A DNA stretch of 64,000 bases, from IMG/VR virus record IMGVR_UViG_3300027844_002282; one strand, 5' to 3'. This document shows, in pieces, positions 881 to 64,000 of the stretch. Each line of letters starts with the position of its first letter. Within the stretch, counting starts at the first letter, position 1. A model generated the notes under the pieces. The model was not told where the DNA came from. It did not search any database and worked only from the letters and a program-made list of their open reading frames with translations. The stretch comes from a virus. The position numbers and the translations under genes were made by a program.

Positions 881-1000
881 GTTATAAACTCCATTTTTCC
901 AAATTCATTTGTTGTTATTCTTTATAAGAGCGTTTATAGTCTTTGGCGCGAACCTGCTCCAGACTATCCTTATTTTACACTCAAGGACTATGTAAATCCT

Positions 1001-2752
1001 TTATGTAAAGTGTATATTAGCAACAACTCCCTGCGGGAGAGGATTTTTAAGAACTCTACCGATAGCCATCCAGGCAGCACCAGCGACACAATCAAGAAGA
1101 TCATCCGTGGTTATATCAGCCTGTGGGTCAGGAAAAATCTGGACCCCCCTCTGTGTTGGTCTATACTTAATATTAAGCATTTCACCAACAACCAAATCGC
1201 TTCCATAAAGAACCAATTCTCTCCTGTCCATGAGATCGAATAGGTTTTTGTAGTAATTAGCCTTTGGACCTCTTCCAAATGGTAACTGCTTGGCGTAAAA
1301 CCCCTTATTACTCAGGTAGCTTATGGAATGAACACTATTCCACGTGTCATATGTTACTGATATAGGCTTAAATATTCTTGCTATTTCAAGAATTTCATCA
1401 TCCAACTTTACAATATCAAGACCGACACCTGGCTGTGGTTTCCAGACCGCGTGGAAGGCTAATACTATCTTAAACCTCTTTTCCCCAGACGATGTGACAT
1501 ATCTCACTCTTTTAACAACAGCACAAGCGTAAGTGTCGTGTTTTGAGGCCGGGTCAATATGCATAAAGTATTCACAGCCACGGTCTCTTTGGTCCTCCAT
1601 ACTAAGATTAGGGTCAACTGCACCCATAACCTTGTCTTCAGGGAAGTACTTATGTACAGAGCCCATTGTAGACCACATTGCGCCAAACTCAATATTGAAA
1701 GCCTCTGGGTCTTTACTTCTCAACATTGTCAAATAGTCGCCATCATATGGGAATTCATCATTAATATCCCATGTTGCAAGGTGAAACCCAAGAATTCTGT
1801 CAAATTGCTTATCAATACTCTGCCCCTGCTTATGTATTGAATGGAAAATTCCAGACGGAATACCAGTCGTGGATAACTCCACCAACTTTCCTCCACCATA
1901 TGTGTCAAACTTTGCCATGGACGGAATCAAAGCGTTATAGAAGTCTCTTCCTGAAACAACTGGGTGTTCAGTGTAGTACTGTAGCTCATCAAACAGGATA
2001 CAAATAGCTGAATAACCACGCAAACTGTCCGGGTTACTATGTCCGCATATCAAAACAATAGATCCCTCAACAGCGATATTCATATCTGGATCGTCTTTTT
2101 TTCTAAGATCGATATCTGTATACAATCTTATCTCAGATGACGAGTCTCCCTTTCCCTGAACTCTCCCCTTAAAAAATGGAGCATTTCTTATCCTCGCCTT
2201 AACTTGTGAAAACAATCTTCCACCCTGTTTCTGGGAGTTTGCCACATTCAATATTGCTATCTCTTCATCGTATGGGATGTTATAATGCTTATATGGATCG
2301 CCAAGCTTGATTAACTTGTACGACTCGTAAGCGCAAATAACTGATGCGAGAAGGGTCTTGCTCGCACGTCTACCGCAGGCGAGATTTAGTTCCATAAAAT
2401 TGAAATTGTGAGGTTCTCCGGGATTGACCCCATCAACTTTTCTTTTTAACTTTTCAATGGCCGAATCTTGGCTCTTGGCGTATAGCCAGTTCCATTCTTC
2501 ATCCGTAAACTCTGTTTTTTCATTACCAGGAGTTCCGTAATAGAATGATTTGAGAATAACTCTCTGACTTAAAAATAAAACAAGGTTGTTTTTAGGTAGG
2601 GCCATCATGTCGTCCCTTTCACAAAAAGATATAACATCTATTAGACCTTCTTCAGTCTCGCCTTCTTCTATAACAAGATTATTCTTTTTTCTTATTTCGG
2701 TGACAGCGTTAGATAAGAAATTAACGTTGTTCCCTTTATTTTTCTTTTCCAT
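1001..2752 (-). CDS. terminase large subunit
   Basis: Walker A-like CGRRASKT, Walker B ILFDE, coupling motif LSTT, RNase H-like nuclease HIDPA ... DDLLD. Confidence 0.92.
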   Translation of the reverse strand: MEKKNKGNNVNFLSNAVTEIRKKNNLVIEEGETEEGLIDVISFCERDDMMALPKNNLVLFLSQRVILKSFYYGTPGNEKTEFTDEEWNWLYAKSQDSAIEKLKRKVDGVNPGEPHNFNFMELNLACGRRASKTLLASVICAYESYKLIKLGDPYKHYNIPYDEEIAILNVANSQKQGGRLFSQVKARIRNAPFFKGRVQGKGDSSSEIRLYTDIDLRKKDDPDMNIAVEGSIVLICGHSNPDSLRGYSAICILFDELQYYTEHPVVSGRDFYNALIPSMAKFDTYGGGKLVELSTTGIPSGIFHSIHKQGQSIDKQFDRILGFHLATWDINDEFPYDGDYLTMLRSKDPEAFNIEFGAMWSTMGSVHKYFPEDKVMGAVDPNLSMEDQRDRGCEYFMHIDPASKHDTYACAVVKRVRYVTSSGEKRFKIVLAFHAVWKPQPGVGLDIVKLDDEILEIARIFKPISVTYDTWNSVHSISYLSNKGFYAKQLPFGRGPKANYYKNLFDLMDRRELVLYGSDLVVGEMLNIKYRPTQRGVQIFPDPQADITTDDLLDCVAGAAWMAIGRVLKNPLPQGVVANIHFT

Positions 2753-2754
2753 TT

Positions 2755-4071
2755 TTACACATATTTTTCTAAGATATAACTCGGTAAAACTATTATATTC
2801 TCAACTTCATTGTCATATGTCATCTTGAGTGGAACGTCAAAATATCCATTCCTCTCTACAATTCCACTATGTATAACCTCTCCAGCTATACCGTCATATT
2901 TAGTTCCCGAATCAATGCATGTCATCAGTTTTGATTCTTGCAATGTCATCCTGTCTTTTTCAAGTGATTGTCTTATGGAATCTTCCACACCAGTCTTTGC
3001 GAACGAGACAAATGAGCAAAGCTTGGTTTCAGACTCTCCACCTTTCAACATGACATATACCTTTGTTTTGGTTCCGTCTCTCTTGTCAAATGCTAAAAAT
3101 CTATCTTTTACATAGTCCCCATTCTCTTGTGTCCCAACACTTATGTCGCCATCATTTGGTGGTTCTGGGACTATGATTATATCATCGTTTACCTTGTAAC
3201 TCGATATGGCCTTGAATATCGGATACCATAAATTGTTATAGTATGTCTGAGACATTAATGGGAACTTTGAAATCATATCTCCAAGTGGCTGGACCTTTGT
3301 CATGATCAAGCCCTTATCAAATTCAATACAGAATGGACCCTCATCAGTCGAGAAGTATAAGATATACTCTCCAGTATGCTCTCTATCTATCCCGGAAAAA
3401 GAGGTCTTAAAAGGAAGCCTTTCAATCACATCGTCGCTCATCTCAGATAGGGCTCCAGATATCCATGGAACATCTTTATTGGCCATTACCTGCATCATAG
3501 CTCCAGAGACGTTTGCTTCGAGGAAATCTCCAAAATGAGTTCTGATTTCCTTATATATTTTCTTCAATTTTCTCTTTAACTTGATCGTGTCTTTAGAATA
3601 TGGGCTCTTAACGTCGTGGTATCCTATTTCTAATATATCGATACCCTCTTTTGCATCGTTAACTGACTCGTCCGCCTCAAATTCCGCAATTGTATTAGAC
3701 ATTATTTCGGCATAATTATCTATCATGGTCTTAAAATTGTTAATTTTTGTCTTTAGACTGCCAGATTTACTATCGCCCTTCATATTCTCAATCATATTTA
3801 GGAAAGTCGTCAAAGCCATATTGAATTTATTTATAACCCTTGTTCTGATCTCATCAGGGCTAACCTTGTCTTCATAATCGGCCATTCTCGTCAGTTTGTC
3901 AGAATTCTCCCAATAGAATAGGCTCGCCTTAGAGGTCGCTTCCTGCATAGTTGGATAAGAACCCTCATCACCTATAAAAGGAAGATAATCATCTGAGCAG
4001 AACAGTTCTGTATCTGCATAAATGATTGAAAAAACGTATCCAGCATTCTTTTTATATATTTTTAGATCCAT
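2755..4071 (-). CDS. hypothetical protein co-transcribed with terminase
   Basis: 438-aa ORF with RBS AGGTG; abuts the terminase start. Confidence 0.75.
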   Translation of the reverse strand: MDLKIYKKNAGYVFSIIYADTELFCSDDYLPFIGDEGSYPTMQEATSKASLFYWENSDKLTRMADYEDKVSPDEIRTRVINKFNMALTTFLNMIENMKGDSKSGSLKTKINNFKTMIDNYAEIMSNTIAEFEADESVNDAKEGIDILEIGYHDVKSPYSKDTIKLKRKLKKIYKEIRTHFGDFLEANVSGAMMQVMANKDVPWISGALSEMSDDVIERLPFKTSFSGIDREHTGEYILYFSTDEGPFCIEFDKGLIMTKVQPLGDMISKFPLMSQTYYNNLWYPIFKAISSYKVNDDIIIVPEPPNDGDISVGTQENGDYVKDRFLAFDKRDGTKTKVYVMLKGGESETKLCSFVSFAKTGVEDSIRQSLEKDRMTLQESKLMTCIDSGTKYDGIAGEVIHSGIVERNGYFDVPLKMTYDNEVENIIVLPSYILEKYV

Positions 4072-4134
4072 ATGACACCTATATTTATTACATATTGCTT
4101 CTATAAACGGGTATGTAAACCCTTTTCCTAAAAA

Positions 4135-8325: not shown

Positions 8326-8337
8326 AATAATTAGTCC

Positions 8338-10930: not shown

Positions 10931-10935
10931 GGTTT

Positions 10936-13815: not shown

Positions 13816-14139
13816 TTATATCCCGACCCTTTGCAGTTGGTTGTGTAAATTTGTCACCAGGTCACCGATATCTGTGAGAGATCTCTTGAGACCCTCAACG
13901 GCTTCAACCCTATGCCCAATAGAGGAACTAAGCCTTGCAATTTTTGTTCTTGCCGATACAATCTCACTCAACATAGTATTTAAAGTATCATAAGGTGTGC
14001 TTTCGCCATCCTCTTCAGGCTCATGTATCTCAGCAGCCTTGACTTCTCTTTTTTCAACAACCGGGAAATCAAGCTTGAAACTATCTTTATACTCCAGCTT
14101 ACTTAGCTTTTCAAAAATATCTTTGTTTACATCTCTCAT
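13816..14139 (-). CDS. hypothetical coiled-coil protein
   Basis: 107-aa ORF with RBS AGGAG. Confidence 0.6.
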   Translation of the reverse strand: MRDVNKDIFEKLSKLEYKDSFKLDFPVVEKREVKAAEIHEPEEDGESTPYDTLNTMLSEIVSARTKIARLSSSIGHRVEAVEGLKRSLTDIGDLVTNLHNQLQRVGI

Positions 14140-14156: not shown

Positions 14157-14597
14157 CTATGGGCCGTGAGGGCCACTTTGTGCATGTTTATATTCTACAT
14201 TAAAATCGGCCTGTTTTCCTTCCGCATCGTCATTTAGCGCTCCAGCATCAGCTGTTTTTATGTTTTCACCATCAAGTATGAATATATCAGCGCCGTCTTT
14301 ATTTTCGGAATCAACCTCTGAAGCTCTCTCTATTGCCGAGGGTGGAGCAGTATTTTTTTCGTCAAAAGATTGTTTGAGATAATTCATACCAAGGAAAACT
14401 ACAATTGTGCAAATTGCAGCGGCTGCGCCCCATAGCCCAGACTTTACTTTAAGCTGTGCGACATCTACAGTTAAAACCGTAACGTCGTTCCTGAGATCAC
14501 CGATGTTATCGTTTAGTCTTTTTAATTCGGCAAGAACGTGATTGGCCCATTGACCCCACTCTCCATTACCACCTGAATTTTTATCATCAGATCCCAT
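14157..14597 (-). CDS. membrane protein, holin-like
   Basis: short coiled coil followed by one hydrophobic segment (SGLWGAAAAICTIVVFLGM). Confidence 0.45.
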   Translation of the reverse strand: MGSDDKNSGGNGEWGQWANHVLAELKRLNDNIGDLRNDVTVLTVDVAQLKVKSGLWGAAAAICTIVVFLGMNYLKQSFDEKNTAPPSAIERASEVDSENKDGADIFILDGENIKTADAGALNDDAEGKQADFNVEYKHAQSGPHGP

Positions 14598-14622: not shown

Positions 14623-15462
14623 TTATCTCTGGGTTTTTAATACATAAAGCTCGGATTGTTCTCCTTTAATATTTATACATAATGTCGTTATTTCTATGTC
14701 ACAACTTGGCCCTGAAATGGGACTTGTATTACAACTAAAAACTATCGTCTCGCCTCCCCAGGCAATTATTGGCTTAAAAAACACATCTATATCCATGCCA
14801 ACTAATTCGACATTCGACTTTGGACCTCTTAAGAAATCATATCCTGACTTGTTAGCATATTTGATAATTCCACAGTTTACCACTATAGCTGGACAGTAGA
14901 TCATATCAATAACTTGATCTACAACAAGGATTGTCCTATCCTTTTCATTAAACTCTTCTTCCACGTCCCTTATAGATACAATATATCCAGAGATCCCATT
15001 CTTTACTGGGGAAACAACAATGTCCGCATGAAAGCTTTTTCCCTTGTCTCCACAAACCTCATCCTGATAGGAGCACTTAACCCCCCCCGTTCTTTCAATA
15101 CCATTGCTCAAGGCCGTGCTAAACGGCTCTCTATCTTTCCCGTCTTCAGAAGGTATAAAAATGAATTTTGAGACATGGAGCCCCTTGACCTCATTAAATA
15201 TAATACCAAACATTTTTTCAGAAGCAGGGTTTATAAAAACAATATTCTCAGATTCATCAAGAACTAAGAAGCCATCGGCAGAGGTGGATAAAATAGAGTC
15301 GGTTATCTTATATAGAGCCTTCAATTCAAAATCCTGAGAAGATATATCATTGGCCATTTTGGACAAGTCATCCAGTCTTCCTTGATTTTTTTTATGTTCT
15401 ATTTCCATGCGCTTGCTTTTCTCAACAGCATCGCCGACAAATAACTTCACAACCCAGTTCAA
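14623..15462 (-). CDS. PAS-domain protein
   Basis: DGFLVLDESENIVFINPASEKMFG...VKGLHV...IVSIRDV is a typical PAS S-box; a second PAS-like segment follows. Confidence 0.75.
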   Translation of the reverse strand: MNWVVKLFVGDAVEKSKRMEIEHKKNQGRLDDLSKMANDISSQDFELKALYKITDSILSTSADGFLVLDESENIVFINPASEKMFGIIFNEVKGLHVSKFIFIPSEDGKDREPFSTALSNGIERTGGVKCSYQDEVCGDKGKSFHADIVVSPVKNGISGYIVSIRDVEEEFNEKDRTILVVDQVIDMIYCPAIVVNCGIIKYANKSGYDFLRGPKSNVELVGMDIDVFFKPIIAWGGETIVFSCNTSPISGPSCDIEITTLCINIKGEQSELYVLKTQR

Positions 15463-16388: not shown

Positions 16389-16545
16389 TAGTATTCTAAT
16401 TAATGAAAAGGAAACCTTTATTTCCCACCAAAAGGAGGATTTTGTGAGAAGCTTTCTTAAAATGACTTGACATCGACCGTTTGTGGTGTATTATAAGCAC
16501 ATTGAAACAAACACATCGACATAAAAGTTTTTCGGAACGAAAGGA
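16389..16545 (+). repeat. 157-bp direct repeat copy 1, carrying sigma70-type promoter and RBS
   Basis: appears identical to 17287-17443; contains TTGACA-N17-TATTAT. Confidence 0.95.
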
Positions 16546-17286: not shown

Positions 17287-17443
17287 TAGTATTCTAATTA
17301 ATGAAAAGGAAACCTTTATTTCCCACCAAAAGGAGGATTTTGTGAGAAGCTTTCTTAAAATGACTTGACATCGACCGTTTGTGGTGTATTATAAGCACAT
17401 TGAAACAAACACATCGACATAAAAGTTTTTCGGAACGAAAGGA
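17287..17443 (+). repeat. 157-bp direct repeat copy 2 (promoter of the 17459-19238 cassette)
   Basis: appears identical to 16389-16545. Confidence 0.95.
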
Positions 17444-17458: not shown

Positions 17459-18277
17459 ATGAAAACTTACTGCATAATCGGTGCCTACGAGTATAATGGC
17501 AGTGCTCGTGATGCGATAGTCGAATACTTTTGTATGCAGGGGGTCGATGGCTTGGTTGTCGTTGATCATAGAAGCCAAAGACCGGCTAGCGACGAGATAG
17601 GGAATGCCGATGCTTGGATGTATCTATGCAGTGCTGCCTGTTCTGCTGGGATGGAGGTGATTTTTCAGTATCACGAATTACCGCGAAGCATAGACCAAGG
17701 ACGAATCGAGAAGATCGTGTCTACTGGGTGCGGCAAGATAAGTATCGGGAGCGCAGAAACTACAGAATGGGTCGGCTCTCACGAGTTGGCGGAAGAAAAC
17801 ATTGAGATTGGCAAGCGCATGGGTTTCGAGTGGGTGTGCGGCATAACGCCGAGGACGATCCTAATGGATTTACTTACTCGTAAGCGGAGAGAAGTTCTCG
17901 TCAGGAATAATGTCTTGTGCCTTACCCTTTCTCCCTATATCCTGTGGGGGTATATGTTTGCTGACGAGCGATTCCCCCATCAATGGGAAACCACGCTGGC
18001 GGGAAAGAACCTTCATGTCGAGTACGGTCTCACGCCGGAAAGACTTGCTGACTACGTTGAGCCACTTGACATAATGGCGGGAGTGGGATCACAGGTGGGT
18101 CTTGATGCCGGTAGCGCAGTATATGCCAAGATGTTAAACTTCAAGGGTTTGGTGATCTCGCTGCCGTTCGATCTGACGGGTGTGTTCGACACCTCAGTAA
18201 GAATGTCGCCTCCGGGCAGCTACCCGACTATTTGTGGGAATTTTGAAGAGGGAGGATACAGGAATGCCTATGCGTGA
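17459..18277 (+). CDS. hypothetical protein
   Basis: 272-aa ORF right after the duplicated promoter/RBS; higher GC than flanks. Confidence 0.7.
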   Translation: MKTYCIIGAYEYNGSARDAIVEYFCMQGVDGLVVVDHRSQRPASDEIGNADAWMYLCSAACSAGMEVIFQYHELPRSIDQGRIEKIVSTGCGKISIGSAETTEWVGSHELAEENIEIGKRMGFEWVCGITPRTILMDLLTRKRREVLVRNNVLCLTLSPYILWGYMFADERFPHQWETTLAGKNLHVEYGLTPERLADYVEPLDIMAGVGSQVGLDAGSAVYAKMLNFKGLVISLPFDLTGVFDTSVRMSPPGSYPTICGNFEEGGYRNAYA

Positions 18278-20955: not shown

Positions 20956-21121
20956 ACTTTTTCCTTGGAGATAATATGGAAGATAAAATACACCCGCTGG
21001 TTGGACAATCGTTCAAAGTTGAATGGTGGATTCGAATCCCACTTGGTCCACCAATTTATTACAGGGATTTCTTTCGAATAATTAGAAGTATTAGCTCAAC
21101 CCACAACAATAGGAGGGTAAT

Positions 21122-21409
21122 ATGAATAAGAACAAAATCATCGGGACACTAATGGTGGCTCCGTTACCGATTTATCTCGTCTATCTTCTTTTGGCAAAAG
21201 AGATTTTGCCGATTGTCATTTGTCTTGCGGCTGGAGTTGGATTATTCCACTTCGGACTCAAACTTTTGACAGGATCAACACTCGAAGAGGTCGGCGAAGA
21301 TGTTGTCAGACATCTCGACGAGGTTGAGGAAGAAGCAGAAGAAGCAGTTGATAAGATTAAGAAAAAGACAAGGAAGCCAAGGGCGAAGAAGGCTGTTAAA
21401 AAGAGTTGA
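21122..21409 (+). CDS. small membrane protein
   Basis: two hydrophobic helices, basic tail, RBS GGAGG; AGG-N19-GAA motif at 21063. Confidence 0.7.
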   Translation: MNKNKIIGTLMVAPLPIYLVYLLLAKEILPIVICLAAGVGLFHFGLKLLTGSTLEEVGEDVVRHLDEVEEEAEEAVDKIKKKTRKPRAKKAVKKS

Positions 21410-22156: not shown

Positions 22157-22561
22157 TTAAAGTCCAGCCAATCCCCTAAATAAACGCATGGCACCAATTC
22201 TATCACCCGCGAAATTACCCTTTTGGTCATCTGGGCCAACAAAAAACCAGTAATCTCTGAATCTGTCGGTTGCAATTTCACCGAGGATCTTCCTGATCTG
22301 GGTGTGAGAGATATCTTGAGAAAAGGTCGCCTCAAAATTTTCCGCGAAGAATGTCAACCTACACCAGCCACTTGCGATAGCATTATAGCCAAGGGTGAGA
22401 CTGTCAAAGGGCATTGGAAACGATTCAGAACCAATCTCGTCTTCAGAAAGGTATTCTGCTAAAGCTTTCTCATGTCCCTGGAAATCATTTACGGGGACTT
22501 CTCCACCATCAGGGTCTATCCATAACCCATAAGCCCCTTGAGATTTTTTGTACCAATTCAT
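22157..22561 (-). CDS. hypothetical protein with MNWYKK leader
   Basis: 134-aa ORF starting MNWYKKSQ. Confidence 0.7.
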   Translation of the reverse strand: MNWYKKSQGAYGLWIDPDGGEVPVNDFQGHEKALAEYLSEDEIGSESFPMPFDSLTLGYNAIASGWCRLTFFAENFEATFSQDISHTQIRKILGEIATDRFRDYWFFVGPDDQKGNFAGDRIGAMRLFRGLAGL

Positions 22562-23303
22562 ATTTTGTCCATATCAAAATTTCTATGCTCAGTTGGGGAA
22601 ACGCCGGAGCGCGTAACTCCGCCCCTCTGGGCTCCTTTTCAACGAAGAGTAAGCATTAAAGAGGTACTGTCACAATTAGATGTACAATAAACTCAGTCCA
22701 CATCCCTCTCATATAACAATGACAGCATCGAGGTAAATATATGAAAAACTATGAAGAAATGAGCTGCGAAGAGCTTCGCCAAAACAGGAAAAAATAGTAT
22801 GGGGCTACTTAGCGCTATTTGTAAAGGTTGCAAGAAAAATATTGAACATTTTAGTTTCGACAATGACATCACCTGTAGAGGATGCGGAATTATAAATGCT
22901 TCAAGTGAAATTCAGCTTTCGACCTTAAGCTACGGAAAGGGACGTGAAGACGGAAAAGACTCATCATCCAGATGGCTTAAATCTTGGATGAACAATAGAG
23001 AAAAACATAATTCATTAGAAGATTGGTATAATGCACTATATAGTATTGTTTACAAAACCAAAAAGTCGCCGCCAAAATTCAAAACTAAAATATCCCTACA
23101 CGCATCAAACCTTCTTTTAAATATGGCAAGGCTTAAGAAAGAGGGGATGGGCGACGAGAAACACGACTATATGTGCGAAAAGATTTGCGATGTTATAATA
23201 GACGCAGAAGATTGGGAAAAAGAACATGATATAGAATCATAGTGGGAATAAATGGTGACAACATGACAAAAAGAATCGTAGTAACGAACAAGAGATAATC
23301 ATA

Positions 23304-24603: not shown

Positions 24604-24679
24604 GAAAATAACCTAATATGTAAAATTAACTTGTTTTTTCATATACGCGGTTACATTGCAGATATCCTTTTTCAATCTA

Positions 24680-25713: not shown

Positions 25714-25781
25714 GGCGGGATAGCTCAACTGGAAGAGCACTTGTTTCATACGCAAGAGGTTGGGGGGCGGTTCCGCCACCA
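25714..25781 (+). pseudogene. degenerate tRNA(CAT)
   Basis: D arm and cttgt-ttcatac-gcaag intact; T arm collapsed; CCA. Confidence 0.6.
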
Positions 25782-39002: not shown

Positions 39003-39040
39003 AAAAAGGCTGAGTGCCTATAAAGCACTCAGTCTTTTTT
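39003..39040 (+). terminator. intrinsic terminator after tmRNA
   Basis: aaaaaggctgagtgc-loop-gcactcagtctttttt. Confidence 0.85.
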
Positions 39041-39114
39041 GTTTTCGAAGGGAATTGTTTTAATAAGAAGGCCCTTCGCCTCCACCTGTAGTATAATATG
39101 TTAGAGGTGATAAG

Positions 39115-47326: not shown

Positions 47327-48247
47327 TTGACACAAGCGGTAACAACCAAACGAAAGGGTAACATTATGTCCAAAATCGAAGGTCTCTGCATCGATCCCCA
47401 GTGGGATTTCTGCCACCCCGGTATGCCAGGGTATGACCCAACAAATCCAAACACGTGTGAATTCACAGCGGAAATAGAGAAGCCCGGCGCGCTCTACGTC
47501 CCCGGCGCTGAGAAAGGGTGCTACAACATCGCGAACATGATCACCAAGAGCAAGAAGAAGTTTGATGGCCTCAGCGTCAGCTTGGACTCCCACAGATCTG
47601 TCCATGTTGCACATGCCGACTACTACCGCGACAACGACGGAAACATGCCCAACCCATTTGACATCATCACGCTCGACGACTTCACGGGGCCGAATGCCAA
47701 ATGGAAGACGTACTGTCCGAAGTCCCAAGACTGGATTGAGAAAAGCTATCTTCCAGGTCTCCGAGATAGGAACAGAAACCCGCTTTGTATTTGGCCAAAG
47801 CATTGCATCATCGGAGAAAATGGTTGGCGCGTCTACCCTCCCGTTTCGAGAGCAATCCGGGAATGGTGCGAAGGCAACTGGTCCGCCATCAACTGGAAGT
47901 TGAAGGGGCAGAACACTCGTACTGAGTGGTACTCGGCAGTAGGGGCTGATTTTGAAGACCCGGCAGACCGCCAGACCTGGATTGACACCGACTTCATTGC
48001 AAGATTCGACAAGGCCGATCTCTTCGTCCTCTTCGGATTCGCAAGAACACACTGCCTCCGTTGGACCTTCTCCGATATCATCAACCACTTCGGGGACAAG
48101 TTCCTCAAGAAGACTTTGTTGGTGGAAGACTGCACGGCAGACGTTCCGATCCCCGAAGTCGTTACCGCGACCGATGAGTTCTTTGCGGAATGCAAGCGAA
48201 ACGGTATGCAGACCTGCACAGCCGAACAGTTCGTCTCTGACGTTTAA
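47327..48247 (+). CDS. nicotinamidase/isochorismatase-family cysteine hydrolase (likely start 47366)
   Basis: IDPQWDF, LDSH, WPKHC, KG, ARTHCL, EDCT; own TTGACA promoter. Confidence 0.85.
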   Translation: MTQAVTTKRKGNIMSKIEGLCIDPQWDFCHPGMPGYDPTNPNTCEFTAEIEKPGALYVPGAEKGCYNIANMITKSKKKFDGLSVSLDSHRSVHVAHADYYRDNDGNMPNPFDIITLDDFTGPNAKWKTYCPKSQDWIEKSYLPGLRDRNRNPLCIWPKHCIIGENGWRVYPPVSRAIREWCEGNWSAINWKLKGQNTRTEWYSAVGADFEDPADRQTWIDTDFIARFDKADLFVLFGFARTHCLRWTFSDIINHFGDKFLKKTLLVEDCTADVPIPEVVTATDEFFAECKRNGMQTCTAEQFVSDV

Positions 48248-48570: not shown

Positions 48571-49230
48571 ATGGAATACCCACACCCCCCCCACTTGACG
48601 TGGTCTCCCAACCGGAAGAGTGACAAGGAAGACAGAATCCTTGAAACTGAAGATTGTTTCATTGGCAAGGAAGTTGTTTATCTTGAGAAACTCGACGGCG
48701 AGAATACCGTTATGTCTCTTGACCGAGTTCACGCAAGATCGGTAGACAGTCCCAGTACGAAATGGAGAACCCTTGTTTCCACAATGTATGGCATGATCAA
48801 GCATTCGATCCCCAGATCCATGTATATTTACGGCGAGAACATGTATGCTACGCATTCTATCGAGTATGGAGGGTTACCGAGTGCGTTTTTCGTCTTCGCC
48901 GTTTTATATGACAAAGAATGGTTTTCCTGGGGAGACACGGTTGAGGTCGCCAAGCACTTTGGGTTTGACACAGTTCCGACTATTTATAAAAATAGTAAAA
49001 AATTGGAGAAGCACCCGATCCCAATCGAATCCGAATTCGGAGGGGCTTGCGAAGGATACGTTGTCAGAAACAAAGAGGCTTTCTCAAACAAGTTCTTCAG
49101 TGATAACATAGCAAAGTGCGTTCGACATGACCATGTCCAAACAGATGAGATATGGTATAAAAGCTGGACCAAAGCCAACTTCACTGATGATCCCATAGAG
49201 AGAGTGTGCAGGATACAAAGTGAAGAATGA
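48571..49230 (+). CDS. ATP-dependent RNA ligase family protein
   Basis: YPHPPHLTWSP, EKLDGEN, GENM, EGYVVR, AKCVR. Confidence 0.85.
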   Translation: MEYPHPPHLTWSPNRKSDKEDRILETEDCFIGKEVVYLEKLDGENTVMSLDRVHARSVDSPSTKWRTLVSTMYGMIKHSIPRSMYIYGENMYATHSIEYGGLPSAFFVFAVLYDKEWFSWGDTVEVAKHFGFDTVPTIYKNSKKLEKHPIPIESEFGGACEGYVVRNKEAFSNKFFSDNIAKCVRHDHVQTDEIWYKSWTKANFTDDPIERVCRIQSEE

Positions 49231-49261
49231 AGAATTATTATAAACCACCGGAGTATTAAAC

Positions 49262-49969
49262 GTGAAAAAAAGATTCATTTTGCAATGGACAATGAAAAGG
49301 GCGGGATCTCACGCAATAGTTGAATGGATAAAAGGGCACATAAAACCGGGTCCATTTTGTTTTTTCAATCAAAGGCAGATAAATTGCCTAGTTGGACCCA
49401 AGCGGAATCATTTGATATCGGAAGATCATGAAATTTTTATGTTTAATCTTGAAGACGGGAAGATAGTAGAGAATAAAGTTGTAGATCAAAGAATTAAAGA
49501 TTTAGGTCTATCAAATCAAATTGAAAAAAGAATAAACATAATACTTCTAAGAGACCCATTTAACATTTTCGCGAGCAGAATGAGAGGGTGGAGTTTAAAA
49601 TTCGCAGAAAACAGCGTTAAATTATGGAAAGAGTACGCGAAAGAGTTTCTCAGAGAAACTCAAAAGCTTGACAATGTCCTACCATTAAATTTTAACTCAT
49701 GGTTTTCAAATGAAGATTACAGAAAACAGTTATCTATCGACCTGGACTTAGAGTTTTCAGACTCTGGAAAAAACAATCTTGGATATTGGGGAAGTTCTTT
49801 CGATGGTAAAGAGTATAAATCCAATGCAAATGAGATGGACGTTATAAATAGATGGCGAAATTATGTTGACGATGAAAACTATATTAATCTTTTTGACGAA
49901 GAAATAATTAGCTTATCAAAAAGGATTTTTAATTTTTGTCCAGAAGAAATAATAAAACAAATAAAGTAA
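49262..49969 (+). CDS. sulfotransferase-like protein
   Basis: MKRAGSHA, RDPFNIFAS, GSSFDG. Confidence 0.7.
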   Translation: MKKRFILQWTMKRAGSHAIVEWIKGHIKPGPFCFFNQRQINCLVGPKRNHLISEDHEIFMFNLEDGKIVENKVVDQRIKDLGLSNQIEKRINIILLRDPFNIFASRMRGWSLKFAENSVKLWKEYAKEFLRETQKLDNVLPLNFNSWFSNEDYRKQLSIDLDLEFSDSGKNNLGYWGSSFDGKEYKSNANEMDVINRWRNYVDDENYINLFDEEIISLSKRIFNFCPEEIIKQIK

Positions 49970-51303: not shown

Positions 51304-52916
51304 AAACCCCTCCGATTGTTTGTAACGTCTATTGTATAATACATCTAAGATACCGATGTATAATTTAAAAACCGATTAATATTAAGAGAGGACTCTATGA
51401 GCAGAAACATAATTCGGATAAATAGTGACATAAAGCCAGAAAGTGGTCTATTATGCCATAGTGGAAAAGTATATTACGGAAAAGAAGAGGTGGCATTAGA
51501 AGAAGAGCCATCGGTATACCTTCAACAATGGCCGAGCATGAAGCTGATGAAGGTCAACAGAGACTGTAACTATTTCATGATCCCATTCACTGAGTTGTTG
51601 ACTGAAACCGCATTACCTTTTGAAGAAGTAGAGAAAATGTGTGAGTATTTGGGATGGTCCAGCGAAGACGTTCTATCTCATATGGTCAATGTTGGGCAGC
51701 TAAATATGTATGAGAAGATGAAGAAAATAGAGTCGAGTTTTCCAGAAAACTGTACGATTGTAGAGCTTTTCACCCTCAAAAACTCCATATGCACCCAAAG
51801 CGAAGAAGAAAAGGCGGTTTCCGACAAAGAAAAAATTTACAAGAGAAATTTGGCTACAAGGGTTGCAATATTCACAATCGGTAGTCCATTGACCCCTGTT
51901 GTAGATGAATCAACGATTAAAAACAGCGCCGAACAAACAGAAGAGGGCATCGAACATGAGCGATCCGAAAAAGAGTCAGCCAAAGGACTCAATCCTTTGG
52001 GGGTGGAAGAATGAAAAAGTTCCTGACAGCGGCTTTGTTGTCAACGGCATTGATACCACTCACTTTGAGCTTTTTGATTGTAAGTCGAAAGAGAAAGCGT
52101 CGTTTGTGCGTCCCATGTCGAAAACGTCCGCTCACTTTAAGGGACTTTCAGAAATTAAGGAAGTTCTTATAGAGCTTCTCGCCAAAAGGCTCGTCCATGA
52201 TTTATACGCTGTTAATGGATTACTTCAATCCGCTGGTCTCGGAGACGGATTAATCCCGTCAGACATTCTCGAAATAATCAAAATCGCCGAGGACGAAGAG
52301 GCGGATGAAGATTACGATAAAGAAACTCATGATTTGATGTCAACTTTAACAATCGTTGAGGATAATCTCAATGAAGATGGTGAAACGACAGATTCCCCAC
52401 CAGACGATGTGGCTTAGATAGCGGGCTCAGCAAAGGAATTTTGCCAGTCCTTAATTATGCTAAGTCTTGCATAATATCTTTTTGTGGATTCTGAATTTAT
52501 AACTGAGAACCCAATCTGCAACTTGAGGGGACTATCAGAATTATAGATTGACCACTTGTTAGCCCTGGCATGATCATAATGTGACCTCAACTCGCCAATA
52601 TTATCGACTTCAATTTCTTCATCAACCGATCCGAATACAGGGACCTCCAATAAAAAATCCCTGTCAGAATTCCCATTCTCAAATATCACAAATCCCATAT
52701 TTCCAGAGACACTATCCCACGCTGGTAACACTTCAGGATTGATCCCGCTTTTAACGAAAACATCAATGATGTTTTTTAACTTCTCCGCCGATGCGATTCC
52801 CTCAGTTTGCTGACCACCCTCATAGTCTCCCCTTTTTATGAACTCATCAAAAGTTACCGTTCTACCTATTTGTTTCACTATTCTTACTCCGACTTGAATT
52901 TTAGTTATACCATGGT

Positions 52917-54387: not shown

Positions 54388-54389
54388 TT

Positions 54390-54928
54390 ATGAACACAAC
54401 AGTTGTTAATTTTTTTCGGTGGTCCAGGTTCAAGGAAGAGCACGATATCAACAAATTTATTTGCAGAATTGAAGGCTAAATGTGAATTGCGAGTTGGTAT
54501 CTGAATACGCAAAAGACCTTGTTTGGGAGGGCTCCATGGGAGTCTTAGACGATCAAGTACACATGTTCGGAGAACAGTACCATAGATTGTTCAGGGTGCT
54601 CGGCAAGGTCGAGTTAGTGATCTCAGACTCTCCAATAATATTGCCGGTGTTGTATGACAAGACCAAATCCCCATCTTTGGCAGCATTAGGTTTGGAAAAG
54701 CATTTGGAATTAGATAACATCAACTTCTTTGTCAACAGAATAGAGCGATACGACGGGTCCGGTAGATATCAAGATGAGCGAGGCGCTGATGAAATGACGA
54801 AGAAAATAAAGACCTTCTTAAATGATTCTGGAATCAAATACGTCGATATTAACGGTGATCGAGCGGCTGTAATATACACCCTTCAATACCTTTTGGCAGA
54901 GAAAGAAGGACTCTTTCAAGGGAAATAG
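54390..54928 (+). pseudogene. NadR-type P-loop kinase/ATPase, frameshifted near the 5' end
   Basis: GGPGSRKST P-loop upstream in another frame after a T-run; EYAKDLVWE, DSP, GRYQ. Confidence 0.65.
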
Positions 54929-55331
54929 CCCACTCTTGCGGTAAACTATAATAACATACAGAGTGGTTTATTATGGGAAAATTTAAGATAATTGGACATG
55001 AAGAATACAATTATAAAGGAAGAAAGTATATTGTATTTTACAGACAAGACGAAAATGGTGTTCAAATAAAACAGATGTCTAAAAATCCAGTCATGAGCTA
55101 CGATCCAAATGATATTATAGGATTGTTCTCAAGACTTTTTAAAAAGAAAGAGATAGTTATTCTTTCAAAGACGGATGCGTATCAGATCGCGGACAAATAC
55201 GAAGACAGTCTTAATGTGATCATAGAAAATAAACGTCAGGAAGATTTGGAAAGAGAGCCGCCAGCGACAACTGAGCAGGTTGAAGAGATTCTCAATCGTA
55301 TGAGAGAGAGATTCGCATCACAATCGTATTA

Positions 55332-55360
55332 GCCCTGCGCCAGATAACTGGCGCAGGGTC
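55332..55360. terminator. hairpin between convergent genes
   Basis: ccctgcgccag-ataa-ctggcgcaggg. Confidence 0.75.
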
Positions 55361-56536
55361 AACACTTAATCTTTATTCTTCAAATCCATAAGCAAACAAC
55401 TGCTCAAGGCTTAACTTGCACGTTCTCCCGGCGCTTATGTTGTTCCCCACGATACTAAGACATCTCCTTTCGTTCTCAAGTCTCTCAATCTTTTCTTGAT
55501 CTCTTGAAATGTGATTTTGTACATGGATATCTTTCTGGCCATATCATTATGAAGATTTCTCCAGTTAAATTTGGACCTGACATCATCAGATTCAAAATTT
55601 TCCCACATCTGCATCGAAGCATAATCCAATCCGTTAGTGGTGGTCACATGATAAGCAGAGGCTGTCTTAGCCGCCTTTCTCCCATCACTTGAACACGATG
55701 AAGATGAATGCCCCATCACTCTACTGGATGAAGATGAAGACGGCTTACTTTCTACGACGGGAAGCTCCCATTCGTCAGATATGTCAATATTCGCCTTCTC
55801 AATAACTTCAATGATATCATCCCACCCGTCATTAAAATTCTTGAATGGTTTTGCAAAGAACTTATTCGATTGCTCGTTGAATACATCAACAGAATCATCT
55901 TTGTCGCCATCAAGATCATCTACCTTCTTAAGCAGGGCCTTTCTCTTTTTTACTAATGGGGAGAGATTTACCTTAAGCTCTTTTTCCTTACCGCGCTGAA
56001 GCTCTTTGATACTCTCAAGTTCAGCATCCTTTGACTCAAGGAAACCTTTGATGGGGGTTATCATGGCTACGAGGGTGTCTATTTCCCCGTTAATGTTTGC
56101 TATTTTACTTCCGATAGCATCGCGAATTTCAGATCCAGTTTTTTCAAATAGAATTCCAACTACGGTTCCATCAAGCGATGAAGCTGAAAAATTGGGTTCT
56201 TTGGATCTACAATAATTTTGTGTGAATAAATAATATTCCCCTGTTGGCATTTAATTATATTATGGATGCCAATATTTTCTGTGTCTATCCACATTGTCAT
56301 TATAATTTAAGAATACAGGAATCACAATAACTGGTTAGGAAAGCTATAGTGTTATAATAAACTTCAAGAGGGCGAGGGAATGACCAATTATAGTACTATT
56401 TATAGACGACCCAAAACAGGCTTTCGTTTTATTGTATTATCTGGGTTTGTCTCAATGGTTAGATCAAACAAGGTGCCATTAATAGAAAAAGAAAATCTTC
56501 CTAAGTATATTGCAGACTTATTAAACATAGAATACA

Positions 56537-57594: not shown

Positions 57595-58287
57595 TTAAAT
57601 ACTTGGTATCTCACCGCGAACTATATCTTTCAATCGGTACTCGTATAGCTCTATAATCTTGCTATAACTTTCATGGATTGTCATGCCATTTCTAAGAACG
57701 TGGTCATCGCCAAAATAAATCTCTATAGCAATTTCACTCATGTTTGGGAAGAAAAACCATTTAACCGTCTCTCTAACTAAATCATTGGCATCACGACCAG
57801 ACTTCTTCGCCTTCATCAACAAACCCCTTAAAAAAGCATCCGTTTCATGATTTTGTAGCATATATTTGGTATAATCGTTTACGCGGGATCTTATATTGGA
57901 ATGCTGTTTGTAGTTATCAATCATTTTGGGCGCGTAAACGACTGGTTTAATTTGATCTGAATGTTCAATCTCATGCCTTATAATCTCTATTAAATCCATA
58001 TACATATCATTCCAATGGTGACTGTTATATAGATTGCTATAATCAAACTTGATATTAATATGGTTTTCTTCTGCAAATCCAGAAAGAAGATATGGGCTTT
58101 GCATAACTTTTGATTGGATATCAACCGTAAGATATTCAATTCCCTGCTCAATTATAGCCGGGAATGGCTTCAGAGAAATGTTCAACACCCTATCACCCAA
58201 GTCTAAAGACCTAAGCCTGGCACTGATTATTTCAGCGATTTGATTTGATAGCGTGTCTAATTTGTTTCTAAATGATTGTTTATCCAT
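57595..58287 (-). CDS. putative zinc metallopeptidase-like protein
   Basis: HEIEH (HExxH) with downstream ETDA. Confidence 0.55.
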   Translation of the reverse strand: MDKQSFRNKLDTLSNQIAEIISARLRSLDLGDRVLNISLKPFPAIIEQGIEYLTVDIQSKVMQSPYLLSGFAEENHINIKFDYSNLYNSHHWNDMYMDLIEIIRHEIEHSDQIKPVVYAPKMIDNYKQHSNIRSRVNDYTKYMLQNHETDAFLRGLLMKAKKSGRDANDLVRETVKWFFFPNMSEIAIEIYFGDDHVLRNGMTIHESYSKIIELYEYRLKDIVRGEIPSI

Positions 58288-58373
58288 AATGCACCTCTAT
58301 ATGATTATACAAAATAGGAGCAATTAATCCCTATCCAAGAGGACATAAGCTATAAAAAACTGAAATAATGGTT

Positions 58374-58676
58374 ATGAACTGGTACAAAATATCCGCAATA
58401 GAGAGATACTCACTAAACGGGGCTGTTTTTTCAATAAAAACATCTCATGGGGAATTTATTGTCTCAATCACCAAGCCAGCAGTTTTAATATCTGGAGAAA
58501 GCATCCTTACTAAAACAAAGAAGCTAACAGATAAGACATCAAACACAAGGGCAGAAGCGATATCTATCCTTAAAGAGCATGGATATGACGGGATAATCCA
58601 ACTCGGAGAAGAAAAGCCGTCAATAGAGCCGTTCTTCAAGAATCAAGTTAAAAGAATTTCTATTCGAAATCTATAA
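58374..58676 (+). CDS. MNWYK-leader protein
   Basis: starts MNWYKISA; GYDGII motif. Confidence 0.6.
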   Translation: MNWYKISAIERYSLNGAVFSIKTSHGEFIVSITKPAVLISGESILTKTKKLTDKTSNTRAEAISILKEHGYDGIIQLGEEKPSIEPFFKNQVKRISIRNL

Positions 58677-58808
58677 CGTGTAAGGCGGCTTCTTATTAGG
58701 GAATATTTGAGTGTCTAACTTCCCACTTGGTGGAATCTTCGGCTGCTTTTTCTTCTTTTTCTTCTTTTTCTTCTTCCCAGCTTCAATGTATTTTTTGTAC
58801 CAATCCAT
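58671..58808 (-). CDS. 45-aa poly-lysine protein with MDWYKK leader
   Basis: MDWYKKYIEAG-K10-QPKIPP...; RBS AGGAGG; absent from ORF track because <60 aa. Confidence 0.7.
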   Translation of the reverse strand: MDWYKKYIEAGKKKKKKKKKKQPKIPPSGKLDTQIFPNKKPPYTL

Positions 58809-58855
58809 AAGGCCTCCTATATAGACTCTTTCAACAGAGGATGGCACCATTCCTG

Positions 58856-59545
58856 TTAGTCCGCAAACATTGAGGCGAAAATATCGTCGTCATCATCAGC
58901 GTCATTTACTACAGTTTCTTCGACACTTATAAGATAACCCTTGCCGTTCTTATCAATAACCCCAGAGATGTATTTTGGGTCAATGAAATCCGTTAACCAA
59001 ACATCATTATCCGCCAAGAATAAGTTAACACCGTCATCCCGCATCGCTTTCGTATCTATTCGCAATATAACAGGTGTGCCATGGCGCTGCCCGACACTCG
59101 TTGCTGTTGGGATATCCGCAGATATGTGAACATACTGACGCTTCCCCTTGCTTACACCAGAACCCATAATTGGAAACAACACCTCAAGGCTTGTCCCATG
59201 GAATAATTCATCTGGCGGAGCAGTTGGTGACAAATTGAGATCGACATCTATTGAATGTCCCTGGTTCGCCCTAACTCTTTGACCATCGTCACTGACCGCA
59301 AATCTCTTCTTATTGTTAGTGTCAACAACGTTGTCGAATTGGGCTCTCGTAACATCGGTTGCCCCGGCTTTCTTAACCTGATTGATTCTATTGATAAGAT
59401 AATCAATACTTGTCCAGCCTTCTCCATCAAGTTTGATCCCCATCGCTTCCGGCTTGTGTCTCAAGACCAAGCTCAATATTTTACTCAAATTGTAATCTTT
59501 CATAGTAGTTTCATTTTTAGTATTTACGAAGACAATATAGCACAC
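58856..59545 (-). CDS. kptA: RNA 2'-phosphotransferase (Tpt1/KptA)
   Basis: SKILSLVLRHKP, KKRF, RANQGHS, HGT, RQYVHIS, VWL. Confidence 0.95.
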   Translation of the reverse strand: MCYIVFVNTKNETTMKDYNLSKILSLVLRHKPEAMGIKLDGEGWTSIDYLINRINQVKKAGATDVTRAQFDNVVDTNNKKRFAVSDDGQRVRANQGHSIDVDLNLSPTAPPDELFHGTSLEVLFPIMGSGVSKGKRQYVHISADIPTATSVGQRHGTPVILRIDTKAMRDDGVNLFLADNDVWLTDFIDPKYISGVIDKNGKGYLISVEETVVNDADDDDDIFASMFAD

Positions 59546-59647: not shown

Positions 59648-61246
59648 TTACACTTGTGAGCTAACAAGTGACTGCACAACTTCCTGGAATCTCGGATCTG
59701 CCTCTAAGGCTGATCGTACATTCGCTTTCGTGACTTCAAGATCTTCATCGATCAAAGACGGATTATCAAGAATAATGTCTTCCTGAACTTCTTTGATGAT
59801 TCCAATATGACGCCCCGGCTTGATATCAGGAACTCTGGCTCTCAACATATTCATGATCTCATGCCCATCAATAATGTCCTTCCCCTTTTCAGGGAGCTTC
59901 TCCATCATTAACTCAGGCATCCTGTTCTTTATCAACGCACTATTGTTCTTCAGCTCACCTTCTGCGGGAATTGAAGAGACTTCATCCGCGACGAGAAGAG
60001 CAAGAACGTCATCAAAAGCATCGTCCATATCTCTGTAATAGCGTCTAAAGGCCTTGTCACCCCATTCTCCGGCGCTGTGTCCTCTCATATGATTATCAAC
60101 AAGCTTAACAGTTTTATCGACAACGTCATTGGGATACTTCAAAGCCTTCATTCTCTCTTTAATCATATCTCCAGAATGCTTCTCGTGCTTGTAGAAATGG
60201 ATTCTATCATCGACCCTCTCTTGAGTGACTGCCTTCCCCCAATCGTGAGAGATAGCCGCCCAAGTAAGATGGATTCCAGCATCGGGGTTCTCATTTTCCA
60301 AAGCCTCAATAACTTTCAAGGTATGGACGTATGCATCCCCTTCACTGTGATGGACAGTATCCTGTTCAACTCCAATCAAAGCATGCATCTCAGGGAGAAT
60401 GGGCTCAAGGAGATCAAGCTCTTCCATCAACGGAATAGCTTCATGCATCTTACCGTACCCAGCAATTTTGTCAATTTCACCACGAAATCTTTCTGCTGAA
60501 GTATTGGAGAGATTGTGAATATTATTCCTGATCGCCTCTTTCACTTCGTCAGTCATAGTCCATCCATGCTTAACAGCAAATCTGACACCCCTAAGCATTC
60601 TAAGAGCATCGTCCTCAAAGATCGGATTGGGATCGCTCGGAGTCCTGATAATTCCATCTTCAATATCCTTCAAGCCCATTCCGGTCAAATCCACAATGTC
60701 GCCATTAGATATTTTTTCTGCAAGAACATCGGGGGAAATAACAGGTCCAGCCTCCATCTTCTTCAAAAGAGAGTTAACAGTAAAATCCCGTCTCATAACA
60801 TCATCTTGAAGAGTCCCAAAGGCAACCTCCGGTTTACGACTTCCGGTCCTGTACTGCTCCTTTCTGGTTTGAACGGCTTCGATCTCAATGCCATCGACAT
60901 TGTATGTCTGTCCTTTGTATATCAAATCTTTCAATATGACAGCGTAAACACCGTATCCCTTATCAATAGGGGGCTTCAAGCCAAGAATCGATGTGACGTA
61001 ATCGCCAAACACCAAGCCACCATCGGGATATTCGATTACAGCATCGATATCCTTGGGGATAATTCCAAGCATCTCATCTCTGACAGTTCCGCCAACGATG
61101 TAAGACTTTCCTTTGAGAACATGCCCATTGGGAATGTTCTTTGCCACTTCCGACAAAAGAATCTGCGCCTGAACAAAAGGGGCGTCGGAATTATCCGCAT
61201 CAGCAGTCAAGTATTTTTCTAAATAAGTTTTTTTGTACCAGTCCAT
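59648..61246 (-). CDS. cca: CCA tRNA nucleotidyltransferase with HD domain and MDWYKK leader
   Basis: VGGTVRD, DID, RRDFTVN, EDDALRMLR, ERF; HD domain HTL...HDWGK. Confidence 0.92.
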   Translation of the reverse strand: MDWYKKTYLEKYLTADADNSDAPFVQAQILLSEVAKNIPNGHVLKGKSYIVGGTVRDEMLGIIPKDIDAVIEYPDGGLVFGDYVTSILGLKPPIDKGYGVYAVILKDLIYKGQTYNVDGIEIEAVQTRKEQYRTGSRKPEVAFGTLQDDVMRRDFTVNSLLKKMEAGPVISPDVLAEKISNGDIVDLTGMGLKDIEDGIIRTPSDPNPIFEDDALRMLRGVRFAVKHGWTMTDEVKEAIRNNIHNLSNTSAERFRGEIDKIAGYGKMHEAIPLMEELDLLEPILPEMHALIGVEQDTVHHSEGDAYVHTLKVIEALENENPDAGIHLTWAAISHDWGKAVTQERVDDRIHFYKHEKHSGDMIKERMKALKYPNDVVDKTVKLVDNHMRGHSAGEWGDKAFRRYYRDMDDAFDDVLALLVADEVSSIPAEGELKNNSALIKNRMPELMMEKLPEKGKDIIDGHEIMNMLRARVPDIKPGRHIGIIKEVQEDIILDNPSLIDEDLEVTKANVRSALEADPRFQEVVQSLVSSQV

Positions 61247-61295
61247 AATTAACCAAGTTTCAAGTAATTATACAAATTCGCTCAAGGACCCACCT

Positions 61296-62823: not shown

Positions 62824-62826
62824 GGT

Positions 62827-63582
62827 TTAATAGGAGTCGCCAGAAACCCAATTGGGATCTGGAGTCCAAGGATCAGGTTTGATAACCGTCACACACTCCG
62901 AGGGGATCATCCCAAAGAAAACCAAAGTATCATCCGAAAGCATATCACCATCTATTTGTTCATCGTAATAATTTTCAACCCCTATCATATGGGCAAGGGC
63001 TTCTTTTTTATGGTACCCTTCGAGCGGATCTTCGCCGCCGACCTCTGGCACGGCACCCATCGATTTCATTTTCCCAACATCGATTTCTACAATAGCATCA
63101 TAGTCTCTGTCGGCAGTTTCGTAATCTGGAGAGGTGAAGACCCCACTTGGAGTCCATTTATTACTGAGCCCCCTACTTTCACTTCTTGGCTCTATCCCCT
63201 CATGGACGAGAGAATTTAATCGGTCAGAAGTAGTCCCGTGGTAGACTTTGTAATTATCGCCGACAGTGTCCCAAAACGGATCTTCTTCAGGGCTTGCTAT
63301 ATAACTATATATCTCCAGATCTGAAATATCACTAAGCCATTCATTTGTGTCCTTTATTGAAACACCAAATCCCTGTAGGCTACCATCCTTATTGAAGTCG
63401 TCAATTAACTGATCGTTGTCAAATACCAGAACAGGAGATGCTTCATGGAATTTAACTATTTCAAAAGTCTTCCCATAGTGATTCAAGATATTGATAATCC
63501 TTTGAGTACTTTCCGACTCTTCAATATCATCGTCAAAATATCCAGAAAAAGTCTCTTCTTGTGCTGATTTATACCAATCCAT
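62827..63582 (-). CDS. MDWYK-leader protein with ART-like domain
   Basis: likely start ATG 63582 (MDWYKSAQ); VYHGT...GIEP...GVFTS. Confidence 0.6.
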   Translation of the reverse strand: MDWYKSAQEETFSGYFDDDIEESESTQRIINILNHYGKTFEIVKFHEASPVLVFDNDQLIDDFNKDGSLQGFGVSIKDTNEWLSDISDLEIYSYIASPEEDPFWDTVGDNYKVYHGTTSDRLNSLVHEGIEPRSESRGLSNKWTPSGVFTSPDYETADRDYDAIVEIDVGKMKSMGAVPEVGGEDPLEGYHKKEALAHMIGVENYYDEQIDGDMLSDDTLVFFGMIPSECVTVIKPDPWTPDPNWVSGDSY

Positions 63583-63583
63583 A

Positions 63584-63838
63584 TTAATAACTCTCAATAG
63601 ATATTGACCACTCAGTCTCAATAGATTCGATTTCTGAGATAGTCTTGTCGATATTTTCCGGCGGCATTTCGCTGGGGTTGAAAAAAACAATAGCGGACTT
63701 ATTCATCTTGTTAAAATGAGGAAACCCATCTCCGCCAAATCTTCGAAAAGAAGACACGATTGAATTCAATTGTAGAGTTAGATTGTCTTTGGAATCATTT
63801 TCCTGAATACTCTTCGCCTTTTTATACCAATCCATCAT
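63584..63838 (-). CDS. MDWYKK-leader hypothetical protein
   Basis: RBS AGGGG before MMDWYKKAK; AGG-N19-GTA motif at 63862-63886. Confidence 0.6.
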   Translation of the reverse strand: MMDWYKKAKSIQENDSKDNLTLQLNSIVSSFRRFGGDGFPHFNKMNKSAIVFFNPSEMPPENIDKTISEIESIETEWSISIESY

Positions 63839-64000
63839 GTAACCCCTTGTATTGTTATAAATACAAAACAAGACTTAAAAGACCCTTCAAGATGGCCATG
63901 GCCAGTTCCTCAATCCCTTTCTGTTGGCGATAGTGATGTGGAATTTCTTGAATCTGTCAAAATGGGCCGTGAGGCCCAACTCGGCGCGAATAGCCATAAT

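Follow-up and report, generated by a model that had tools for sequence, protein, structure and literature searches.

The middle promoters of phage SPO1, which are read by the phage sigma factor gp28, carry AGGAGA at -35 and TTTNTTT at -10. Those of phage T4 combine a MotA box at -30 with a sigma-70 -10 element and are used by AsiA/MotA sigma appropriation. A further point of comparison is the alternative sigma factor SigH, whose promoters have a spacer of 11-12 bp that places AGG and the G of the -10 element 18-19 nt apart. The SigH consensus is RNAGGAWWW at -35 and RNNGAATWW at -10 (PMC8510167). Here we describe a bipartite element, AGG-N19-G[AT]A, that recurs upstream of genes in a 64,000-nucleotide stretch of viral DNA (IMG/VR record IMGVR_UViG_3300027844_002282), the whole of which is called the window below. 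The element is a rigidly spaced signal oriented toward the next gene, and it is a good candidate for the core of a phage-specific promoter class.

Nearly everything known about giant phages comes from sequence, and how their transcription is programmed has yet to be mapped. With a searchable promoter consensus that has statistical support, the genome of such a phage can be divided into transcription units and regulons, and transcript starts can be predicted. In addition, DNA carrying AGG-N19-GWA provides a bait for finding the specificity factor. Phage-specific promoters are already well known as a kind, so another class would be of practical more than conceptual value, except if the factor that reads it proved to be new.

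Enrichment upstream of genes

The initial annotation of the window listed 15 sites with the N19 spacing, and each of them is an exact match at its coordinates and on its strand. It also held that the evidence lies in the positional bias of the motif, and this is how the counts fall. Over the whole window the motif is present at chance frequency, with 63 matches observed versus 58.6 +/- 7.6 in shuffled sequences, and 31 of 100 shuffles reach 63. Only 5.5% of positions are located within 60 nt upstream of a same-strand start, and this zone holds 10 of the 22 AGG-N19-GTA matches and 10 of the 41 AGG-N19-GAA matches (20 sites). The corresponding counts at other spacings are 0-3 for GTA and 1-6 for GAA. 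Similarly, noncoding DNA oriented to the next start carries 15 N19 sites versus 1-7 at the other spacings from N10 to N30. An excess of N19 over its neighbours upstream of genes was the outcome on which the earlier claim had been staked, and N19 alone peaks. The peak is found in each half of the window (9 sites versus a mean of 1.75, p ~9e-5; 11 versus 2.10, p ~1e-5), and intergenic DNA between co-directional genes contains 18 sense sites versus one antisense. The genes were called with a simple caller based on codon usage and ribosome-binding sites, which reproduces the annotation of phage G well.

A screen that is blind to the motif gives the same answer. All dyads of the form 3-mer-Nk-3-mer, with k = 8-30, were counted in 77 oriented upstream regions totalling 8.9 kb (94,208 tests). 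The initial annotation had proposed such a spaced-dyad analysis. AGG-N19-GTA ranks first among all of them, with 10 occurrences observed and 1.09 expected (p 2.5e-7). When applied to phage SPO1, the screen places TTG-N23-AAT at the top, which is equivalent to TTGACA-N17-TATAAT. Because this top dyad is the known housekeeping promoter, the screen does find real promoters.

The signal is specific in both halves. No peak at N19 is observed for one-base variants of AGG, or when G[AT]A is replaced by GCA, GGA or [AT]TA. Because AGG-N19-[AT]TA is flat, the G, which falls at -13 when the element is numbered as a promoter, is required for the enrichment. Mean identity between sites outside the fixed triplets is 0.284 versus 0.269 expected, and this near-composition value indicates that the sites are not copies of one duplicated cassette. 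These results confirm a real, oriented and spacing-rigid upstream signal. A proposed N18 variant at 16394-16417(-) was not borne out, since N18 shows no enrichment and this match is 99 nt from a start. The sites are as follows, and those described as new were absent from the initial annotation.

976-1000, minus strand: AGG-N19-GTA, hexamer TAAAAT, 95 nt upstream of 524-880(-); weak by distance
4099-4123, minus strand: AGG-N19-GAA, 27 nt upstream of 2755-4071(-) (438 aa); the TerL-like gene 1001-2752(-) comes next
14196-14220, minus strand: new, AGG-N19-GTA, hexamer TAGAAT, 56 nt upstream of 13816-14139(-)
14641-14665, minus strand: new, AGG-N19-GTA, in the 3' end of a PAS-domain gene and 43 nt upstream of 14157-14597(-)
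21063-21087, plus strand: AGG-N19-GAA, 34 nt upstream of 21122-21409(+)
22683-22707, minus strand: AGG-N19-GTA, 121 nt upstream of the WYK-leader gene 22157-22561(-); weaker by distance
24644-24668, minus strand: AGG-N19-GTA, hexamer TATATG, 40 nt upstream of 24112-24603(-)
25381-25405, plus strand: AGG-N19-GAA, 21 nt upstream of 25427-25723(+)
30870-30894, plus strand: new, AGG-N19-GTA, hexamer TAAAAT, 43 nt upstream of 30938-31276(+)
36059-36083, plus strand: probably a chance match, its AGG being the AAGGAG ribosome-binding site of the GTG-start open reading frame (ORF) 36072-36374
37437-37461, plus strand: AGG-N19-GAA, 48 nt upstream of the ATG at 37510
39069-39093, plus strand: AGG-N19-GTA, perfect TATAAT, 21 nt upstream of the HNH-endonuclease gene 39115-39690 and a long plus-strand sugar-metabolism operon
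49210-49234, plus strand: new, AGG-N19-GAA, hexamer AATTAT, in the 3' end of the RNA ligase gene and 27 nt upstream of 49262-49969(+)
54919-54943, plus strand: new, AGG-N19-GTA, 29 nt upstream of 54973-55332(+)
56317-56341, plus strand: AGG-N19-GAA, 38 nt upstream of 56380(+)
58308-58332, minus strand: AGG-N19-GTA, perfect TATAAT, 20 nt upstream of 57595-58287(-); belongs to a divergent pair of sites
58340-58364, plus strand: AGG-N19-GAA, 3-9 nt from a start codon (9 nt to the MNWYK start at 58374)
58830-58854, minus strand: AGG-N19-GAA, 21 nt upstream of the WYK-leader ORF start at 58808(-)
61271-61295, minus strand: AGG-N19-GTA, perfect TATAAT, 24 nt upstream of the CCA-adding/poly(A)-polymerase-HD gene 59648-61246(-), followed by the Tpt1 gene 58856-59545(-)
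63862-63910, minus strand: two tandem sites, 63862-63886 (GTA) and 63886-63910 (GAA), 23 and 47 nt upstream of the WYK-leader gene 63584-63838(-)

Sequence features of the element

Alignment of 21 sites, 12 with GTA and nine with GAA, reveals weaker preferences around the fixed triplets. A purine is located two bases before AGG in 17 of the 21. The base that follows AGG is A in 11, G in seven and another base in three, and is thus a purine in 18 of 21; by the counts made against a comparison set, this purine is present in 17 of 20 sites versus 85 of 151. The next three bases are 71-81% A/T versus a background of 62%. Within the gap, T is enriched only at the single positions -17 and -14.

On the 3' side, A is found at +3 after GWA in 14 of the 21 sites and T at +4 in 11. 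The A is present in 70% of sites compared to 41% of all GWA trinucleotides in upstream regions (p 0.008), and the two bases together in 35% compared to 14% (p 0.012). Because this A and T were not selected for and are nonetheless enriched after GWA, the 3' half can be written as G followed by (T/A)AnnAT. A perfect G-TATAAT occurs at three sites (39069, 58308 and 61271). The spacer between the hexamers AGGnnn and WAnnAT is exactly 17 bp, and spacers of 16 or 18 bp are not used. The -10-like extension is as directly visible in the sites as are the motif, its spacing, its orientation and its position. AGG is located 42-75 nt from the start codon, and ten sites are located 20-29 nt from it.

A candidate phage-specific promoter class

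These features make it probable that a genuine phage-specific promoter class exists, with AGG-N19-G[AT]A as its core and a phage-supplied specificity factor as its reader. The -35-like element would consist of (R)(A)AGG(R) and, after it, bases that are mildly A/T-rich. The -10-like element would be a G at -13 followed by (T/A)-A-n-n-A-T, which is the housekeeping TATAAT pattern plus G, and the invariant gap between the halves would be equivalent to a 17-bp spacer. Transcription is predicted to start approximately 10-12 nt after GWA. The ten sites that are 20-29 nt from a start codon fit this prediction, as they leave room only for a Shine-Dalgarno leader. Host core RNA polymerase would be directed to these sites by the phage-supplied factor, which might be a phage sigma that recognises AGG through region 4 and the TATAAT-like box, with its G at -13, through region 2. 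Alternatively, the factor might be an activator that takes over -35 recognition from the host housekeeping sigma. Promoter function, the factor that reads the motif and the timing of its use are what we infer.

A bolder form of this proposal is possible but doubtful. Most protein-coding units, including the packaging operon, might use a previously undescribed specificity that combines an AGG -35 element, an obligatory G at -13, a TATAAT-like -10 element and a rigid 17-bp spacer. The reader might then be a sigma-like or sigma-redirecting factor that profile libraries miss, and at least one unit (58374) might be leaderless.

Several observations weigh against a phage-specific promoter class. The best dyad in 17 of 400 dinucleotide-preserving shuffles is as extreme as the one observed, giving the blind screen a family-wise p of only ~0.04. 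Little information is present outside the six to seven fixed bases, and the GAA sites form the weaker half, with a poorer -10 extension than the GTA sites. Some of the counted sites are questionable: 36059 and 22731 are probably ribosome-binding-site coincidences, and 62185 and 58340 are too near an ATG. Relatives of the TerL protein, which might have provided support from conservation, were not found in viral, metagenome or genome contigs. Finally, no sigma factor, MotA/AsiA-like protein or other transcription factor was recognised with Pfam and PHROGs among ~50 window proteins, a search that covers the window and hence a fraction of the phage genome, so that its negative outcome carries little weight. 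An ESM Atlas look-up of two unannotated proteins for sigma gave one isochorismatase-like protein and otherwise nothing usable.

The strongest competing explanation is that the sites are promoters of the housekeeping sigma with a good -10 element and no usable -35 element, at which a phage activator, and not a new sigma, binds AGG over the -35 position, as in class II activation or in sigma appropriation of the kind known from T4 middle promoters. We consider this rather unlikely. It is formally a sub-case of the proposal above and is kept apart because the factor that reads the motif differs. The -10 half is indeed TATAAT-like, with three perfect hexamers and enrichment of A at -8 and T at -7, and AGG is located exactly where the TTG of a -35 hexamer falls with a 17-bp spacer. 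The lack of a sigma gene among the proteins tested also favours an activator; however, no activator candidate was found among them either. In addition, half of the sites have A rather than T at -12 and several hexamers are poor, which is unfavourable for the housekeeping sigma, and no contact of this factor with the invariant G at -13 is known.

It is less probable still, and on balance quite improbable, that the motif is not a transcription signal at all. It might then be a residue of AGG sequences resembling ribosome-binding sites combined with A/T-rich leaders, or an RNA-level processing or standby element. Such an origin would be consistent with the absence of global enrichment in the window and with the modest family-wise value of the blind screen. 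AGG is also common upstream of genes owing to Shine-Dalgarno sequences, and a few of the counted sites are of this type (36059 and 22731). Yet an effect of composition or ribosome binding would not single out one of 21 spacings, and do so in each half of the window. Moreover, AGG is outside Shine-Dalgarno distance from the start codon, and neither the -10-like extension nor the requirement for G at -13 has an RNA-level rationale.

Least probable is that a host SigH-type sigma reads the sites and thereby draws the phage genes into the host transition-state regulon, for although the purines flanking AGG would fit RNAGGAWWW and a SigH spacer would allow AGG and GAA to be 18-19 nt apart, the -10 consensus RNNGAATWW does not describe sites of which most carry GTA and only one of the nine with GAA continues with T (49210), N18 is not enriched, and it would be odd for the terminase operon of a lytic giant phage to rely on a stationary-phase host sigma.

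A separate reading of the AGG sites as hairpins or terminators was rejected, since they share no stem.

Genomic setting of the sites

The window belongs to an orphan giant phage with a putative Bacillota-like host. It is ~40% GC and contains ~95 ORFs with strong GGAGG-type ribosome-binding sites, as well as 18 tRNA-like genes and a transfer-messenger RNA (tmRNA) gene at 38303-38736. The TerL-like protein encoded at 1001-2752(-) is ~25% identical to Streptomyces phage terminases, and its best match is from the 485-kb uncultured phage LR745208.1 (22.6% identity). A blastn search against phages revealed no relatives of the TerL region, and an exact 40-mer taken from the window is absent from viral, metagenome and genome contigs. 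Recognised products include glycosyltransferases, a PAS protein, PRPP synthetase, a CCA-adding/poly(A)-polymerase-HD enzyme, Tpt1, an RNA ligase and an HNH endonuclease, and most of the remaining window proteins match nothing.

Several sites have distinctive surroundings. The region 30864-30894 is a near-perfect inverted repeat, TACAGGAT ... ATCCTGTA, with a 12-nt centre, and presents AGG-N19-GTA on both strands (minus strand, 30867-30891). This palindrome may be operator-like and could overlap the promoter of 30938-31276. The site at 39069 is directly 3' of the tmRNA terminator hairpin (39010-39032), so that the order from tmRNA onward is terminator hairpin, AGG-class site with perfect TATAAT (ending at 39093) and HNH endonuclease gene. 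This arrangement could reflect the insertion of a mobile endonuclease beside tmRNA. The 80-nt divergent gap at 58288-58367 holds two opposed AGG-N19 sites. Because the site at 58340 ends so close to the start codon at 58374, the corresponding mRNA would be leaderless or near-leaderless, if the site is real. Nearby, the WYK-leader ORF 58671-58808(-) combines a length of just 45 aa with a strong ribosome-binding site and an AGG site of its own, and it converges on 58368-58676(+). This ORF could be a truncated WYK-family member. The class assignment of 56317 is ambiguous because a housekeeping-type extended -10 element, TGTTATAAT, is present 12 nt further downstream. Elsewhere, the long ORFs 51397-52014 and 51905-52417 overlap by 110 nt on the same strand in different frames, which may indicate a nested start or a frameshift; an AGG-N19-GTA match (51859-51883) is located 21 nt before the second ATG of this pair.

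Coexistence with canonical promoters

A scan for the two housekeeping hexamers calls none of the AGG sites except for one overlapping call near 56317. Its best calls, with 10-11 of 12 matches, are the following canonical promoters.

16467: upstream of the tRNA-Gly leader
17365: duplicate of 16467, feeding gene 17459-18277
20004: upstream of a tRNA
32408: upstream of a stretch proposed as rnpB
38103: upstream of tmRNA
47264: TTGACA-17-TATGTT, upstream of the nicotinamidase-like gene 47366-48247
48481: upstream of the RNA ligase gene

The promoters at 16467-16494 and 17365-17392 are identical (TTGACA-16-TATTAT) and are located 898 bp apart. The gene served by 47264 encodes a 293-aa protein with no Pfam match that is isochorismatase/nicotinamidase-like by ESM Atlas features (0.96) and by structure (TM 0.9). 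The claim that tRNA, ssrA and pncA-like units use TTGACA/TATAAT-type promoters thus stands. For the accompanying identification of rnpB, Rfam gave no confirmation at gathering score in the window.

On this sequence evidence, two promoter classes probably coexist in the window. Canonical TTGACA-N16/17-TATAAT promoters would serve the unaided host polymerase at RNA genes and some enzyme genes. The combination of host-type promoters with a phage's own class is the usual signature of a temporal cascade. As proposed initially, the AGG motif precedes the TerL-like operon (4099-4123), and it is found within 90 nt upstream of four of the seven WYK-leader genes, which supports the link drawn with these units. 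The suggestion of a 'late' regulon is unsupported, since the class heads the TerL operon but also the HNH endonuclease gene, the unit encoding the CCA-adding enzyme and Tpt1, and many genes without recognised products.

Comparison with known promoter systems

Two large phages were searched for the same signal. Bases 1-50,000 of phage G exhibit no N19 peak and no strong dyad, a result that is uninformative because the TerL of the window has no significant similarity to phage G gp1. LR745208.1 likewise has no N19 peak, which is uninformative because this genome is 54% GC and shares only the low TerL identity given above. The phage G paper includes PhagePromoter predictions only and no such motif.

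Among named sigma classes, the SigB (AGGTTTAA/GGGTAT), ECF (GGAAC/CGT) and TcdR-family (TTTACA) consensuses fit neither the spacing nor the -10 bases. The initial annotation had described a distinct bipartite promoter-like class, separate from TTGACA/TATAAT and loosely like SigH. The distinctness was upheld, and the likeness to SigH may extend to the -35 half, in which AGG was fixed by the selection of the sites, and not to the -10 half. The two systems would have in common a -35 element built on AGG, preceded at a distance of two bases by a purine and continued by A/T-rich sequence, and a G before the A residues of the -10 element. The window sites differ in that the fourth -35 base is A or G rather than A alone, the -10 element is G-(T/A)-A-n-n-A-T rather than GAAT, and only N19 is used, never N18. 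In addition, the purine expected three bases before G in the SigH -10 element is present in 11 of 21 sites, which equals background. As derived from these sites, the consensus matches no named sigma class tested here.

The middle promoters of T4 are similar in that a housekeeping-like -10 element is kept, the -35 element is replaced by a phage box at a fixed distance, and canonical promoters serve other genes. However, AGG is located at -35 to -33 whereas the T4 box, TGCTT, is centred on -30 and is absent from the window sites. The host also appears to be Gram-positive-like, and the requirement for G at -13 has no T4 counterpart. MotA and AsiA had no PHROG match among the tested window proteins, and neither Pfam sigma domains nor PHROG sigma families revealed a gp28 homologue among the ~50.

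The gp28-dependent promoters of SPO1 also form a phage class in a large Bacillota-type phage, start their -35 element with AGG and coexist with consensus housekeeping early promoters, and some T-richness just upstream of G (-17 to -14) adds to the likeness. They differ in that AGGAGA is found at only one or two window sites (14641; 36059 has AGGAGC and is probably a ribosome-binding site). Upstream of SPO1 genes, the T-run sets in 18-21 nt after AGGAGA, whereas at this position the window sites have no TTTNTTT and carry the TATAAT-like hexamer WAnnAT. Several AGGAGA sequences upstream of SPO1 genes are 5' arms of AGGAGA...TCTCCT hairpins followed by T-runs, and are thus terminators rather than gp28 promoters, which is a caution for motif counting.

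Promoters of the housekeeping sigma-A/sigma-70 type share the -10 pattern WAnnAT (A at -8 in 14 of 21 sites, T at -7 in 11 of 21) and the equivalent of a 17-bp spacer. An extended -10 element has TG at -15/-14. The window sites lack this TGn extension, and where TG occurs it is located at -14/-13. Relative to the housekeeping class, AGG replaces TTG, G is invariant at -13, and the spacing is rigid rather than 17 +/- 1.

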